Positions 2,522 through 15,591 of a stretch of DNA of 20,000 bases are shown piece by piece (the first letter of the stretch is position 1; each line of letters opens with the position of its first letter). This DNA is from an uncultured virus (IMG/VR IMGVR_UViG_3300032225_002272) (taxonomy: Duplodnaviria; Heunggongvirae; Uroviricota; Caudoviricetes). The notes under the pieces were generated by a model, which made no database searches, was not told the DNA's origin, and worked only from the letters and a program-made list of their open reading frames with translations. Made by a program: the position numbers and the translations under genes. The stretch lies in the IMG/VR virus record IMGVR_UViG_3300032225_002272; one strand, given 5' to 3'.

Positions 2522-2905
2522 ATGGAACAAAAGAAAAGACCTGATAGCTTTGTAGAAAACAGATTATCTAAGAGATATCCAACGGAAATTGGCGCACCAA
2601 AATTTGAACCTGATAATATTTCTCTTTTTAAAATTGAAAAAACTTCTAAAATAAAAAAATACTATTCTTCAAGATTTGAAGAGATGACTAAAGAGTATGA
2701 AAAGTTAATGTCAGAAATTCAAATGAATGAAAGACTTTATACGGCTTCACACAACTTTGAACCAATCTCTGGCGAAACTTACCACTTATATAAAAAGGAA
2801 TCCGGTCAAGAATTTCTTTCTTTAATATCTCCGGAACAATGGGCAAAATTTGATTTCATCGGATCTTATAGATTCTTATCAGACGGTAGATGGGAGGCTA
2901 TTTAA
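2522..2905 (+). CDS. DUF2452-like protein
   Basis: YPTEIGAPKFEP...FEPISGETYHLY...FLSLISPEQW resembles Bacteroidota DUF2452 proteins (recognised by eye). Confidence 0.6.
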   Translation: MEQKKRPDSFVENRLSKRYPTEIGAPKFEPDNISLFKIEKTSKIKKYYSSRFEEMTKEYEKLMSEIQMNERLYTASHNFEPISGETYHLYKKESGQEFLSLISPEQWAKFDFIGSYRFLSDGRWEAI

Positions 2906-4506
2906 CCTACCCACCCTTCTTTCAAACTTACAGTCTTATTGAAACTTTTACCGTCAGTGTCTAAAATATAATACCCTTTTCTCATCATTTGAACTGGTGC
3001 CTTGACTTTTAAAACATGAGGTTCAAAGATTGCCTTATCATTAATTATAAGTGAATCTGGGTTGATATAATTGATAAAATCATCTTCATTTTTATCAGGT
3101 GATTCATCATTGAATAATCTATCATATTCATTTACATTCATTCTAACTCCGTGTTCAGCAGATACCCAGTGAATGGTTCCTTTAATCTTTCTTTCAATAA
3201 ACATACCTGATCTTGTTAAAGGATCGTAAGTACATCTAATCTCAATGATTTCTCCGAATTCATCTTTGATAACTTCATTAGCCATAATAACATAAGCACC
3301 TTTTAATCTTACTTCACCACCTAATTTCAATCTATGAAATTTATTATTAGCTTCTTCTCTAAAATCTTCTCTTTCAATAAATAATTCTCCATTAAAAGGA
3401 ATCATTCTAGTACCAGCACTTTCATCACCAGGATTATTTTCAACTTCAACCATTTCAGTTCCGTTATCCCAATTAGTAATAACTAACTTAACTGGATCCA
3501 TGACACCCATTAATCTGTTGGTAACTATATTCAAATCAGTTCTTAAACATTCTTCTAAAAGTAAATAAGAAACAACCGATTCTTTTCTGGTAACAGAAAT
3601 TCTATCACAAAAATCTTTAATAGCATTTGGTGTAAAACCTCTTCTTCTTAAACCGGAAATAGTAGGCATTCTTGGATCATCCCAACCATCAACATAAGAT
3701 TCTTCAACCAATCTTTTTAATTTTCTCTTTGACATAACTGTATAGTCAATGTTCAAACGAGCAAACTCAGTTTCTTCTGGAAGTGGATTTTCTAAATCAC
3801 AATTTTCTAATACCCACATATATAAAGGTCTATGAACTTCAAATTCTAAAGTACATAAAGAATCAGTGATACCTTCTTTATAATCTGAAAGTGGATGAGC
3901 AAAGTCATACATTGGATAAATCTTCCAAGTATCACCAGCTCTGTGGTGTGACTTAGATATTATTCTATAAAGAACCGGATCTCTTAAAATCATATTAGGA
4001 GAAGTCATATCAATATTGGCTCTTAAAATTTTAGAACCTTCAGAGAATTCACCTAATCTCATTCTATTAAATAAGTCTAAGTTTTCTTCTATACTTCTAG
4101 ATTTATAAGGTGAGTCTTTACCAACTGAAGTTGGAGTTCCTTTTAAGTTAGCAATTTCTTCACTGGTTGAATCATCAACATAAGCTAATCCTTTCTTAAT
4201 TAAAGTAACAGCACAATCATAAAGAAAATCAAAATAATCAGATGTATAGAAAATGTTGGCTGGTTTGTAACCTAACCATTCTATATCTTTTATAATTGAT
4301 TCAACAAAGTGAGTATCTTCAGTAGTTGGATTTGTATCATCAAATCTCAAGTTACAAGGTCTATTATATTTTTCAGCCAAGCCAAAATTTAGTATAATGG
4401 ATTTAGCGTGACCCAGGTGTAGCAGACCATTGGGTTCAGGAGGAAATCTTAATGTTAGTTTATCAAGATTGTCTTTTTCTAATATTTTATCTTCAATGAA
4501 ATTCAT
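2902..4506 (-). CDS. glnS: Glutaminyl-tRNA synthetase
   Basis: RFPPEPNGLLHLGHAK (HIGH), LRFDDTNP, YPMYDFAH, SLCTLEF, MSKRKL (KMSKS-equivalent), WDDPRMPT; GlnRS C-terminal beta-barrel motifs (LKLGGEVRL, KGTIHWVS). Confidence 0.95.
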   Translation of the reverse strand: MNFIEDKILEKDNLDKLTLRFPPEPNGLLHLGHAKSIILNFGLAEKYNRPCNLRFDDTNPTTEDTHFVESIIKDIEWLGYKPANIFYTSDYFDFLYDCAVTLIKKGLAYVDDSTSEEIANLKGTPTSVGKDSPYKSRSIEENLDLFNRMRLGEFSEGSKILRANIDMTSPNMILRDPVLYRIISKSHHRAGDTWKIYPMYDFAHPLSDYKEGITDSLCTLEFEVHRPLYMWVLENCDLENPLPEETEFARLNIDYTVMSKRKLKRLVEESYVDGWDDPRMPTISGLRRRGFTPNAIKDFCDRISVTRKESVVSYLLLEECLRTDLNIVTNRLMGVMDPVKLVITNWDNGTEMVEVENNPGDESAGTRMIPFNGELFIEREDFREEANNKFHRLKLGGEVRLKGAYVIMANEVIKDEFGEIIEIRCTYDPLTRSGMFIERKIKGTIHWVSAEHGVRMNVNEYDRLFNDESPDKNEDDFINYINPDSLIINDKAIFEPHVLKVKAPVQMMRKGYYILDTDGKSFNKTVSLKEGWVG

Positions 4507-4524
4507 AATGTTTATATTTTTTAG

Positions 4525-4596
4525 TTGTCTCGCCAGGATTCGAACCTGGACTCTTTCCGTTCAAAGCGGCTTGTGTTGCCCTTACACCACGAGACA
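4525..4596 (-). tRNA. tRNA-Gln(UUG), weak anticodon stem
   Basis: TGTCTCG/CGAGACA acceptor (U1-A72), loop CTTTGAA, T-arm CCAGG TTCGAAT CCTGG. Confidence 0.85.
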
Positions 4597-4602
4597 TTGT
4601 TG

Positions 4603-4674
4603 TTGCTCCACTTGGACTCGAACCAAGCTCATCTGTTTCAAAGACAGATATGATCACCCATATACTATGGAGCA
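4603..4674 (-). tRNA. tRNA-Gln(UUG)
   Basis: TGCTCCA/TGGAGCA acceptor, TCTGT CTTTGAA ACAGA anticodon arm, CTTGG TTCGAGT CCAAG T-arm. Confidence 0.88.
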
Positions 4675-4676
4675 AT

Positions 4677-4710
4677 AAAAAACCCGAATCAATTAGATTG
4701 ATTCGGGTTT
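4677..4710 (-). terminator. Intrinsic terminator (attenuator) of the Gln leader
   Basis: AAACCCGAATCAAT-CTA-ATTGATTCGGG-TTTTTT, ending 2 nt before tRNA-Gln. Confidence 0.9.
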
Positions 4711-4738
4711 GTAAAGTTTAGACAATACGATACCATTA

Positions 4739-4789
4739 TCAATCTGTTGGATTAATTTGTTGTTGTTGGTATTGTGATGTTGTTCTCAT
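4739..4789 (-). CDS. Putative Gln-sensing leader peptide MRTTSQYQQQQINPTD
   Basis: 16 codons with five CAA; AATATATA motif 9 nt upstream; AGATTGAT across its stop is complementary to ATCAATCT in the terminator 5' arm and loop. Confidence 0.85.
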   Translation of the reverse strand: MRTTSQYQQQQINPTD

Positions 4790-4817
4790 AGTTCTATTTA
4801 TATATTTTGTTTCCTTG

Positions 4818-4895
4818 TCGAGATGGCAGGATTCGAACCTGCGAAATTCTCCTGCTCCCAAAGCAGGCGGGGTGACCTGGCTCCCCAACATCTCG
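4818..4895 (-). tRNA. tRNA-Pro(UGG)
   Basis: CGAGATG/CATCTCG acceptor, A73, CCTGC TTTGGGA GCAGG, GCAGG TTCGAAT CCTGC. Confidence 0.9.
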
Positions 4896-4904
4896 TTATT
4901 TTAG

Positions 4905-4977
4905 CGGTCCATACCGGATTCGAACCGGTACCACACACCGTGACAGGGTGGTATTGTAACCATTCAACCAATGGACC
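4905..4977 (-). tRNA. tRNA-Asp(GUC)
   Basis: GGTCCAT/ATGGACC acceptor, G73, CACC CTGTCAC GGTG, ACCGG TTCGAAT CCGGT. Confidence 0.9.
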
Positions 4978-5039
4978 ATTTTGAGAATTCTTTTACTCTA
5001 TTCTCTAAAGAGTATCTTTCGCTCCAAAGCTACTTTTTG

Positions 5040-5113
5040 TCGGGAAGGTCGGAATCGAACCGACTAACTGAAGCCTCCAGAGCCCCCGTGCTTAAAACCT
5101 TAGTCACTTCCCG
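5040..5113 (-). tRNA. Atypical tRNA-Pro(UGG)-like (C33, poor D stem)
   Basis: CGGGAAG/CTTCCCG acceptor with A73 (Pro-like), GGGGC TCTGGAG GCTTC anticodon arm, GTCGG TTCGATT CCGAC T-arm. Confidence 0.6.
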
Positions 5114-5128
5114 GTTTTAATATAAAAC

Positions 5129-5161
5129 AAAAAACCCAGTTAATCTTTCGACTAACTGGGT
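5129..5161 (-). terminator. Intrinsic terminator (attenuator) upstream of the Pro/Asp/Pro tRNAs
   Basis: ACCCAGTTAGTC-GAAA-GATTAACTGGGT followed by TTTTTGTTTT. Confidence 0.9.
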
Positions 5162-5185
5162 AATGTTTCATAGTTAATATTTTCT

Positions 5186-5284
5186 TTAACTTAAAACCAC
5201 ATAGTTAGCCTCTTTCGAACCAGGATCCTGATCGATTACAACTTGCGGTTGCGGGTTAACGATATTTAAGTTTAAGTTTTTCAT
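5186..5284 (-). CDS. Putative leader peptide MKNLNLNIVNPQPQVVIDQDPGSKEANYVVLS (Pro/Gln/Asp-sensing)
   Basis: 32 codons; 8 of codons 11-21 are Pro, Gln or Asp; GGCTAACT (5203-5210) can pair with AGTTAGTC of the terminator 5' arm; AATATATA 5 nt upstream. Confidence 0.75.
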   Translation of the reverse strand: MKNLNLNIVNPQPQVVIDQDPGSKEANYVVLS

Positions 5285-5289
5285 TTCTT

Positions 5290-5434
5290 TATATATTAAA
5301 AAGTTTTTCTTCCTTTTGTTCTTATTTTATACAAATATACAACAAAGTTTTAATTTGTCAAATATTTTTTTAATTTATTTTATTTTTTCTCTTTTGTGAC
5401 TACAAAGATATGTAGTTTATTTTAGATTGCCAAA
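5290..5434 (-). promoter_or_regulatory. Tandem Bacteroidota-type promoters plus AATATATA motif for tRNA array 1
   Basis: TTTG(5431-5434)-N20-TATCTTTG(5403-5410); TTTG(5359-5362)-N19-TATATTTG(5332-5339); AATATATA(5290-5297). Confidence 0.7.
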
Positions 5435-13666: not shown

Positions 13667-13673
13667 ATGTTTG

Positions 13674-13745
13674 TGTCGATACCTGGAATCGAACCAAGTC
13701 CTCAGGAACATGTCCCCCTGCACCCTACCAATAGGCTATATCGAA
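13674..13745 (-). tRNA. Degenerate tRNA-Met-like, 8-nt anticodon loop
   Basis: TCGATA/TATCGA acceptor similar to 13435-13506; CAGGG GGACATGT TCCTG; normal T-arm. Confidence 0.55.
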
Positions 13746-14216: not shown

Positions 14217-14299
14217 AGGTACTGACTGGGTTCGAACCAGTGTGACAGATTTTGCAGATCTGTGCCTCTCGTCTTTCGACACCACTCGGCCACAGTACC
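14217..14299 (-). tRNA. tRNA-Cys(GCA) with an extra hairpin in the D-loop
   Basis: GGTACTG/CAGTACC acceptor, U73, CAGAT CTGCAAA ATCTG; D-loop contains GTC GAAA GAC. Confidence 0.85.
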
Positions 14300-14566: not shown

Positions 14567-14649
14567 TACCGAAGGTGGGACTCGAACCCACACACCCTTT
14601 CGGGTACCAACTTCTAAGGCTGGCGTGTCTACCATTCCACCACTTCGGC
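14567..14649 (-). tRNA. tRNA-Leu(UAG)
   Basis: GCCGAAG/CTTCGGT acceptor, CCAGC CTTAGAA GTTGG, long variable arm. Confidence 0.92.
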
Positions 14650-15459
14650 ATTTATTTTTCTTTTATAACAATTTTTATAAAATTCTGGATCGATTTCTTT
14701 TAATAGTTTATTTACATTTTTAACTTTTAATATCTCAGATGCTAGTTTAACCCATCCAATCTTTTTAAAATCTATACTACTACTTTTTAATTTATTTAAT
14801 CTTTCACTATAACTATCCAGTTTATTAATTTTTCTTTTATTCCAGTACTCTTCCCTATTCTTATATTTTTTTTCTTTCTTATTTTTTATATAAAATGGTA
14901 TATCGATTTTATTATTATTTTTAATATTTTCTAAAATAGAATCACACATTTCTAAATTATAAACAATTGAGTAGTGTACTTCATATATCGACCATCCTTT
15001 ATTTTTTATAAAACTATTTCTTTCACTATAGTAATCTTTAAGTTCTCCATTAGATTTATAATGTTGATTACCATTAATTTCTACAACCGAAGTGAACTCA
15101 GGTATTAAAATATCAACCGAATAGAATCTTTCTTTTGAAATCATAACCTCTTCCAAAAAGAAAATATTTCTACTTTTTAAGAATTTCTTAAACTCCTCAC
15201 AAGGCTTAGATTTATTTCCGTTTCTCCAAGGATGTTTAGATGTATTTTCTTTCAACCATTTTTTTCTACCTTCTGATATTAACTTTTTTGTTTCTCTTTT
15301 TACTTCATATTTTTTTAATTTCCAATTTTCTTTATTCAATAAACCTTTTTTTACAAAAGTTCTTAATTTTTTAATTGATATACTATACTTAATTAGTATA
15401 TCTTTTTGATAAAAAAGACCACTTTCAAAGTCTTTTTGAATATTTTCAAAGTCTAACAT
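14629..15459 (-). CDS. DUF559/Vsr-like PD-(D/E)xK endonuclease, probable free-standing homing endonuclease
   Basis: SKPCEEF..L...FYSVDIL....VVEINGNQHY...ERNSFIKNKGWSIYEV; NUMOD3-like ETKKLISEGRK; lies inside the tRNA array. Confidence 0.75.
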   Translation of the reverse strand: MLDFENIQKDFESGLFYQKDILIKYSISIKKLRTFVKKGLLNKENWKLKKYEVKRETKKLISEGRKKWLKENTSKHPWRNGNKSKPCEEFKKFLKSRNIFFLEEVMISKERFYSVDILIPEFTSVVEINGNQHYKSNGELKDYYSERNSFIKNKGWSIYEVHYSIVYNLEMCDSILENIKNNNKIDIPFYIKNKKEKKYKNREEYWNKRKINKLDSYSERLNKLKSSSIDFKKIGWVKLASEILKVKNVNKLLKEIDPEFYKNCYKRKINAEVVEW

Positions 15460-15512: not shown

Positions 15513-15591
15513 TACCCCAGGTAGGATTCGAACCTACATTTTCAGTTCCGTTACGATTAGTCGCTTAGAAGGCGACCTCGGCTACTGAGGC
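15513..15591 (-). tRNA. Atypical tRNA-Arg(UCU) lacking a D-arm, with a 22-nt variable region
   Basis: GCCTCAG/CTGGGGT acceptor, only TAGCCGAG before GTCGC CTTCTAA GCGAC, GTAGG TTCGAAT CCTAC T-arm. Confidence 0.7.

Follow-up and report, generated by a model that had tools for sequence, protein, structure and literature searches.

A stretch of 20,000 nucleotides (nt) from an uncultured virus of the Caudoviricetes (IMG/VR record IMGVR_UViG_3300032225_002272), hereafter called the window, carries a short open reading frame (ORF) rich in glutamine codons, an intrinsic terminator, two tRNA-Gln(UUG) genes and the gene glnS for glutaminyl-tRNA synthetase (GlnRS), arranged one behind the other. We interpret leader and terminator as a ribosome-mediated leader-peptide transcription attenuator specific for Gln-tRNA(Gln), which would gate the tRNA-Gln(UUG) genes together with a presumably co-transcribed glnS, and we put the probability of this reading at about 0.8. 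Its predicted consequence is that tRNA-Gln and GlnRS are probably made only when ribosomes lack charged tRNA-Gln. The parts of the element are in place and they are conserved among relatives, as are their alternative pairings, their spacing and their link to tRNA-Gln. A glutamine attenuator had already been proposed for this locus in an earlier note made from the DNA letters alone, and every prediction of that proposal which can be tested at the level of sequence supports it.

The glutamine leader and the genes behind it

The leader ORF (4789-4739; minus strand, like every feature of this locus) has 16 codons, from an ATG at 4789 to a TGA at 4741-4739, and encodes MRTTSQYQQQQINPTD before the stop. 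Five of its codons are CAA, one at codon 6 and four in a row at codons 8-11, and these (4774-4757) would be the regulatory codons; sequence and coordinates agree with those of the earlier note. The run is the sole (CAR)x4 run on either strand of the 20-kb window, in whose 17 ORFs glutamine accounts for 2.6% of codons (CAA 115, CAG 16). The region upstream of the ATG is A/T-rich and lacks a Shine-Dalgarno sequence. Downstream, a spacer of 28 nt leads to the terminator (4710-4680), which consists of a 14-pair stem, a 3-nt loop and a T-run ending at 4677. The first tRNA-Gln(UUG) gene (4674-4602, called by both ARAGORN and Rfam) begins 2 nt past the end of the T-run and the second copy occupies 4596-4524, so that terminator and tRNA pair are present as had been claimed. 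The glnS gene (4506-2902) starts 17 nt past the second tRNA, in keeping with the distance of under 20 nt noted before, and this gap contains neither a terminator nor a promoter motif. Its product of 534 amino acids (aa) scores 656.2 bits on NCBIfam TIGR00440, for which the curated equivalog cut-off is 425.8, and comprises the class I E/Q catalytic domain tRNA-synt_1c (PF00749) and both C-terminal domains (PF03950 and PF20974). It is a bona fide glutamine--tRNA ligase.

Alternative RNA structures

Four segments of the leader transcript can be distinguished. Region 1 (4756-4750, AUUAAUC) covers codons 12-13 plus 1 nt and pairs with region 2 when the RNA is ribosome-free. Region 2 (4745-4732), the strand that changes partner, is made up of AGAUUGAU across the stop codon and then GGU. 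Region 3 (4710-4694) is the terminator 5' arm (4710-4697) with the loop (4696-4694), and region 4 (4693-4677) is the 3' arm (4693-4680) with the T-run to 4677. The minimum free energy (MFE) structure of the full-length RNA combines the terminator with an upstream 1:2 hairpin in which AUUAAUC (4756-4750) pairs with GAUUGAU (4744-4738); its energy is -27.9 kcal/mol, with z = -4.5. An outer helix around this hairpin joins codons 4-8 to the spacer (GGUAU...GUAUUGU), its 3' strand being the conserved spacer motif GTATTGTCT (4728-4720). Once the 3' arm is omitted from the folded RNA, the MFE structure changes: AGAUUGAU now pairs with AUCAAUCU, and ACC is the partner of GGU. The energies obtained range from -10.2 to -12.1 kcal/mol. 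The three pairings correspond to the 1:2, 2:3 and 3:4 alternatives known from classical attenuators. The earlier note had already described the 2:3 pairing, namely AGATTGAT (4745-4738) with ATCAATCT (4702-4695) and a flanking GGT (4734-4732) with ACC (4708-4706), and both contacts are found in the MFE fold of the nascent RNA lacking the 3' arm. The CAA/TTG flank that it added draws on the terminator 3' arm, and the 1:2 hairpin (4756-4750 with 4744-4738) was missing from its description.

Relatives of the element

Within the phage collection, the window most closely resembles two uncultured phages, LR745206.1 (635 kb; 77% identity over 95% of the query) and LR756502.1 (642 kb; 75% over 86%). 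Both keep leader, terminator and tRNA-Gln genes before glnS. Further relatives were gathered by strict and relaxed DNA pattern searches of viral contigs and by GlnRS-based searches, the latter being unbiased with respect to the leader. With identical copies merged, huge-phage genomes and contigs yielded 23 distinct sequences of leader plus terminator, 20 of which enter the alignment-based counts below. The relaxed pattern search contributed one genuine addition (L009); another of its matches, L010, proved false, lying inside a coding region, and was dropped. The terminator of L006 has a T-run in its loop. An extra, degenerate variant, L031, encodes MKTNTQYQQFRIQLKG before its stop. The earlier note had suggested a search for Q-rich mini-ORFs upstream of glnS in related phages, and the leader is indeed kept in relatives.

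Among 20 phage-like metagenome glnS loci (GlnRS identity 61-94%), the leader is present in 12 and the variant in one, four are cut off upstream, and two have neither a tRNA-Gln before glnS nor a leader. The last one, L038 (61% GlnRS identity), has a tRNA-Gln(CUG) and no leader. The leader is absent from L017, L032 and L037, whose glnS has no upstream tRNA-Gln. No Q-run leader with terminator was found at 60 bacterial-like metagenome glnS loci, one of which has a Q-run mini-ORF (MIQQQFW followed by a stop) that is not accompanied by a terminator, and the element is absent from the glnS loci of 80 cellular genomes. A host origin of the leader is thus unsupported (0/80 cellular loci, 0/60 bacterial-like loci with terminator).

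The element belongs to the tRNA-Gln array

In all 23 sequences, the first gene after the terminator is a tRNA-Gln(UUG). The gap between T-run and tRNA is 2 nt in 15 of them, 6-13 nt in six, 57 nt in L006 and 495 nt in L005. In the latter (minus strand), a second hairpin sits between the Gln terminator and the tRNA-Gln 495 nt further on, and this module may be an insertion or a decaying one. The tRNAs called in the arrays that follow are nearly all Gln(UUG or CUG), the lone exception being a tRNA of L025 with an undetermined four-base anticodon that contains TTG. Some tRNA-Gln(UUG) copies of relatives measure 82-85 nt (L001 2462-2543, L002 2030-2114 and L014 2151-2232), which suggests that they carry a long variable arm, unusual for tRNA-Gln.

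The association with glnS is looser. In 11 of 21 loci, the window among them, the gene lies 17-33 nt past the last tRNA-Gln and the gap has neither a terminator nor a promoter motif. In the remaining 10 the gap amounts to 229-1400 nt and in most cases holds another ORF. Since the linkage to tRNA-Gln is found in 23/23 and a close glnS in only 11/21, the element belongs to the tRNA-Gln array and not to glnS. The idea of the earlier note that tRNA and synthetase form one regulated unit is therefore retained for the window, where they adjoin, and does not extend to the element as a class; where glnS is adjacent, its arrangement is consistent with co-transcription and co-regulation.

Signs that the leader is translated

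Several features suggest that the leader ORF is translated. Its ATG does not vary among the 20 aligned sequences. In 21 of the 23 leaders no other ATG precedes the Gln run, and in all 23 the ATG shares the reading frame of that run. Each leader has 4-7 Gln codons, in consecutive runs of 3-7 (CAA 115 and CAG 23 over the 23 leaders), and this run is the most conserved coding feature. Within the alignment, substitutions inside the run are confined to third positions (CAA/CAG), and indels ahead of and inside the run are always multiples of 3. Past the run, single-base indels shift the frame and relocate the stop codon (L026, L018, L014, L027 and L034); leader length ranges from 14 to 26 codons and the C-terminal peptide sequence varies across subfamilies. 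From this difference in the indel pattern before and after the run, it appears that the frame from ATG to Gln run is under selection and the peptide tail is not. The context of the start codon is A-rich and without a Shine-Dalgarno sequence, which fits the description of Bacteroidetes mRNAs in PMC7366714.

These observations bear on two other explanations. One is a translation-independent switch: the CAA run and the hairpins would bind a protein or, in the manner of a T-box, tRNA-Gln, and the ORF would be there by coincidence. In its favour, CAA and the anticodon UUG are complementary, the conservation of AGATTGA extends to leaders that read it in another frame (L018 and L026), and the spacer is highly conserved. 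However, the invariant ATG, the in-frame run, the indels in multiples of three and the variation restricted to third positions are not expected of such a switch, and the conservation of AGATTGA and GG is explained by pairing with the terminator arm. At its gathering thresholds, Rfam returns nothing but tRNAs. The T-box family (RF00230) is not matched at its gathering threshold, nor on 4600-5350 at E values up to 10, and glutamine-binding RNAs are not among the 26 matches listed for that segment at the same E value. Nor does the leader have an Rfam family: the permissive scan gave sub-threshold noise, such as Thr_leader with an E value of 4.1 (4677-4789), which is not counted. We consider a translation-independent switch very unlikely.

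The other explanation holds that the translated leader shields the nascent tRNA transcript from Rho or nucleases, or that it yields a functional Q-rich peptide. Transcripts of tRNA arrays are long and untranslated, and trans-acting leader peptides, such as peTrpL, are known. A functional peptide is nevertheless hard to reconcile with a C-terminal sequence and a length (14-26 codons, with frame shifts) that are not conserved, and shielding would make a strong terminator and its matched antiterminator unnecessary, so that we regard this possibility as highly improbable.

Covariation and matching of leaders to their own terminators

RNAalifold, applied to the 20 aligned sequences, independently predicts the 1:2 hairpin and the terminator. 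Taken together, these two elements have 84.4% of cells paired, with 9 pairs changed on both sides; 500 shuffled controls never reach the observed value on four of five measures and do so in 25 cases on the fifth, and slid controls reach 28-44% paired. The 1:2 hairpin alone has 92.9% of cells paired and 2 pairs changed on both sides, the outer helix 71% and 3 pairs, and the terminator helix shows compensatory changes at 4 pairs. The spacer is highly conserved and alignment positions T65, T66 and G67 are invariant. When the leaders are folded alone, region 2 is paired with the upstream leader in 23/23, mostly with the codons right after the Gln run. The 2:3 helix is paired in 83.2% of cells and its core of 6 bp in 20/20; its few changes are all single-side switches to G-U.

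Support for the 2:3 pairing comes from the diverged members L019, L035 and L036, and not from co-variation within the main family. Their terminators are unrelated in sequence, yet each leader complements its own 5' arm, with duplex energies of -12.8, -11.5 and -13.1 kcal/mol, respectively. In a 23 x 23 cross-matrix, none of the 22 others binds these three leaders or arms as well, in either direction. The antiterminator pairing is present in all 23 distinct sequences, and the comparison indicates that three diverged members have re-invented it with a different sequence. The duplex between leader and arm of the window is equalled by 0 to 2 of 500 shuffles. The same test on 22 sequences, with L006 left out, gives at most 10 matching shuffles in 500 for 18 of the 22 and at most 38 for all 22. 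As a control, two gene-end terminators of the window paired with their own upstream 60 nt give -4.2 and -3.8 kcal/mol, no better than shuffles.

Ribosome position and the balance between structures

The geometry of the element was expressed as the distance between the first base of the last Gln codon and the first paired base of region 2. This distance is 12-15 nt in 21 of the 23 leaders, with a range of 11-17, while region 2 is found at anywhere from -22 to +2 relative to the stop codon. It is thus the distance to the regulatory codons which is conserved, as expected if a stalled ribosome exposes region 2 while covering region 1. Ribosome masking was simulated by folding the nascent RNA with a 28-nt footprint blocked. 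With the footprint on codons 8-11, the 2:3 pairing forms (-12.1 kcal/mol); with the footprint at the stop codon, 2:3 is abolished and the terminator 5' arm is free.

A number of observations weigh against an attenuator of this kind. The terminator wins at equilibrium, with an occupancy of 0.97 in every masked state, and for this reason read-through would have to be kinetic; the switch in the trp attenuator is likewise held to be kinetic. In the ribosome-free nascent RNA, 2:3 (-12.4 kcal/mol) is favoured over 1:2 (-9.8 kcal/mol), so that an untranslated leader may read through instead of terminating. The antiterminators are short and AU-rich, at -9.6 to -15.9 kcal/mol versus -10.7 to -15.8 for the terminators; the helix energies of the trp attenuator are comparable. 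The stop codons of L014, L019, L035 and L036 are located 9-14 nt past region 2, and a terminating ribosome would consequently cover region 2 only partly. Within the main family, 2:3 has one co-varying pair (CG 5, UA 5, UG 3, unpaired 7). As the helix hardly varies there, none of the measures differs significantly from the shuffled controls; the observed percentage of paired cells, for instance, is reached by 193 of 500. Moreover, L031 has just 4 Gln codons, which are scattered, glnS adjoins in only 11/21 loci, and the coupling of transcription to translation in the presumed hosts is only assumed.

Promoter motifs and a probable nested gate

The motif TAnnTTTG is the sigma-A -7 consensus of Bacteroidetes according to PMC9723704 and PMC7366714. 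In the window, it is absent from tRNA-Pro to the Gln leader and from the leader to tRNA-Gln, and a motif scan finds none between leader ATG and tRNA in 22 of the 23 sequences. An independent promoter between terminator and tRNA, which the earlier note had named as an observation that would speak against an attenuator, has no room in the 2-nt gap, and the motif is absent there. Eight loci have un-nested Gln modules with no upstream tRNA and a TAnnTTTG box of their own, located 43 nt before the ATG in five and 51-55 nt before it in three.

In the window, the element is preceded instead by a Pro/Asp array that has its own gate (minus strand). A candidate -7 box of this Bacteroidota type (5339-5332) stands 55 nt before the ATG of a first-gate leader ORF (5284-5186), which has 32 codons, encodes MKNLNLNIVNPQPQVVIDQDPGSKEANYVVLS before its stop, includes Pro, Asp and Gln codons and contains NPQPQVVIDQDP. 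The first-gate intrinsic terminator (5161-5134) has 12 pairs, and its 5' arm is complementary to GGCTAACT of the leader; one computation gives this duplex -10.2 kcal/mol, matched by 75 of 500 shuffles, and another -11.2 kcal/mol, matched by 21 of 500. The homologue of the first-gate leader in LR745206.1 contains PVNPQPQDQDP. The array itself begins with a tRNA-like gene (5113-5040) that scores 27.9 bits in Rfam, where the gathering score is 29, and has no ARAGORN call in the window; at the matching position in L001 (1370-1444), ARAGORN calls a tRNA-Pro(UGG). It is followed by tRNA-Asp(GUC) (4977-4904) and tRNA-Pro(UGG) (4895-4817). The latter ends 27 nt before the ATG of the Gln leader, and this gap is A/T-rich and has no promoter motif. 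The arrangement suggests that the Gln gate of the window is promoterless and nested behind the Pro/Asp/Gln gate, an addition to the layout of the earlier note, which had recognised the gate and not its nesting.

The same data address the possibility that we are dealing with the ordinary terminator of the Asp/Pro transcript and a chance mini-ORF, tRNA-Gln and glnS being expressed from elsewhere. In the window the element does follow tRNA-Pro at 27 nt, and strong terminators are common here (21 observed against 7.8 expected). However, the T-run ends 2 nt before tRNA-Gln, the promoter motif is missing between leader and tRNA in 22/23, and the eight loci with their own TAnnTTTG box have leader and terminator free-standing. 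The conservation of the ORF, the fixed spacing and the complementarity of each leader to its own arm would also be unexpected. The relatives largely refute a plain terminator, the chance of which we see as close to negligible.

Codon-matched leaders across the genome

A third module of the window (minus strand) starts with a leader of 36 codons (15949-15839) that begins MKTMNLNMNMNTLTVVNNTLCI and has a TAnnTTTG box 54 nt before its ATG; the TCTGAGGG of this leader copies the 3' arm of the terminator that follows (15809-15779). Counted by hand, M, T, N, L, V and I make up 20 of the first 22 residues, and the tRNAs behind the terminator are Ile and Asn, then, after an ORF, Leu, Asn, Val, Ile, Thr, Val, Leu, Thr, Leu, Met, Met and Leu.

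In LR745206.1, where 61 tRNA matches are found, seven leader-plus-terminator modules head all large tRNA arrays (341500-344500, 363800-369500, 386800-390600 and 405800-408400; L100-L103). A leader characterised by H, K, F and W precedes an array of His, Phe, Trp and Lys tRNAs, one characterised by S and R an array of Arg and Ser, one with Y and E an array of Glu and Tyr, and one with I and G an array of Ile, Gly, Met and Gly. The leader with M, N, L, T, V, I and R heads a 19-tRNA array of those identities, and the leaders with P and D and with Q head the Pro, Asp and the Gln arrays, respectively. Each of the seven leaders has its own array as best match, and of the 5040 permutations the true assignment scores best. 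Every module has a complement of 6-9 bp to its own terminator arm inside the leader, and several share a common 5' untranslated region that ends CTTTTTAATATATAAGAA before the ATG, with a TAnnTTTG box at -66.

The mixed-codon leaders of the same architecture that head other arrays would also be compatible with a general sensor of translation capacity, in which read-through would follow whenever ribosomes slow down, for instance through host shut-off or a defence that targets ribosomes. In addition, the antiterminator is preferred when region 2 is uncovered, so that any failure to reach the stop codon would open the gate. Such a sensor leaves the matching of leaders to arrays (rank 1 of 5040) unexplained, and it accounts neither for the Gln run being the most conserved coding feature nor for its fixed position 12-15 nt from region 2 in 21/23. 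Although it overlaps with glutamine-specific attenuation, we judge it unlikely.

A glutamate module before gltX (12222-10597) was considered and rejected, neither a codon-matched leader nor a terminator being found. The gltX gene (minus strand) is of bacterial type (TIGR00464, 440 bits) and is preceded by a hydrophobic ORF of 45 codons (12378-12241). Between the Ile/Asn tRNAs and the 15-tRNA array lies an ORF of 276 aa (14629-15459, minus strand) with no Pfam match, which looks like an insertion into the tRNA operon. Two tRNAs on the minus strand are found by Rfam and not by ARAGORN, at 14217-14299 (55.1 bits) and 15513-15591 (36.7 bits); on visual inspection, the second seems to carry a long variable arm, and its anticodon loop to read UCU (Arg). 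ARAGORN further reports tRNAs with four-base anticodons in the window (13673-13745, acat) and in L001 (1865-1938, gtag), which may be eight-membered anticodon loops or mis-calls.

The presumed hosts

The GlnRS of the window is 54-57% identical to its 80 best cellular relatives. From their names (e.g., Chryseobacterium, Flavobacterium, Elizabethkingia and Lentimicrobiaceae), we take these to be Bacteroidota. According to Al-Shayeb et al. 2020 (PMC7162821), phages whose genomes exceed 634 kb belong to the 'Mahaphage' clade, and Bacteroidetes are their predicted hosts. The mRNAs of Bacteroidetes have no Shine-Dalgarno sequence and are A-rich ahead of the start codon (PMC7366714). Clues for leader-peptide attenuation have been reported in a flavobacterium (PMC9723704).

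A model for the glutamine gate

We propose the following sequence of events. Transcription would enter from the upstream Pro/Asp array, itself located behind the Pro/Asp/Gln leader and terminator, as the lack of a promoter motif between that array and the Gln leader suggests, and a ribosome would initiate on the 16-codon leader. When charged tRNA-Gln is plentiful, the ribosome would reach the UGA and mask region 2 (4745-4732); the terminator arms could then pair, and RNA polymerase would halt at the T-run, 2 nt before tRNA-Gln. When charged tRNA-Gln is scarce, the ribosome would stall at CAA codons 8-11, where it would hide region 1 together with the 5' strand of the outer helix while region 2 stays just beyond its footprint. 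Region 2 would then capture the apical part of the 5' arm and the loop (about -12 kcal/mol) before the 3' arm is synthesised, and the polymerase would read on into both tRNA-Gln genes and glnS. Both the stalling and the kinetic competition between pairings are deduced from the sequence and its folds, as is the predicted dependence of read-through on glutamine. Since Gln tRNA and its charging enzyme would relieve the stall, the circuit would amount to negative feedback on the sensed molecule itself.

Whether this scheme can be generalised is, in our opinion, an evenly balanced matter. Huge Bacteroidota phages would have a genome-wide, codon-addressed network in which the leader of each array spells its amino acids and the nested, two-stage Gln gate responds to demand. 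Since it would sense the speed of decoding at codons preferred by the phage, such a network might also register that host tRNAs are being depleted or cleaved, and replenish exactly the missing tRNA species.

Comparison with known systems

Like the phage element, the attenuators of amino-acid operons (trpL, hisL, leuL and pheL, and the multivalent thrL and ilvL) have a short ORF in which cognate codons form a run and an intrinsic terminator behind it, and the position of the ribosome selects among 1:2, 2:3 and 3:4 pairings that exclude one another. They gate biosynthetic enzymes, whereas the phage element would gate tRNA genes and a synthetase and thus sense their direct product. Unlike them, it is phage-encoded and has expression signals of the Bacteroidota type. 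Closer in content is the E. coli pheST attenuator, where a synthetase is placed behind the pheM leader, rich in its own amino acid. A His leader before hisS paralogues has been described in bacilli (PMC2965389). In pheST and hisS, as in the phage, the synthetase follows a leader of its own amino acid, but only the synthetase is controlled; the phage element is tied to a tRNA array (23/23), with glnS as a passenger in about half of the loci. The T-box (RF00230) follows the same logic, in that tRNA charging gates the read-through of a terminator upstream of aminoacylation genes. It reads uncharged tRNA directly and without a ribosome, whereas the phage sensor would be a translated ORF.

In the sources that a literature search made available, in part only, there is no description of leader peptides that gate tRNA genes, nor of a leader with Gln codons, and the strings 'attenuat', 'leader' and 'terminator' are all absent from the main text of PMC7162821. 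What is known, then, is leader-peptide attenuation of biosynthesis operons and of a few synthetase genes; what appears to be new is the proposed gating of tRNA genes with their cognate synthetase, which would close the feedback loop directly on charged tRNA, and its occurrence as a whole family of codon-matched gates across one phage genome. If the proposal is correct, huge phages control the translation machinery they have imported at the level of individual codons, by means of compact, amino-acid-specific switches that are read by the ribosome and work with Bacteroidota-type signals. The purpose of phage tRNA arrays would then become testable: they may supplement tRNAs on demand and possibly also answer a loss of host tRNAs.

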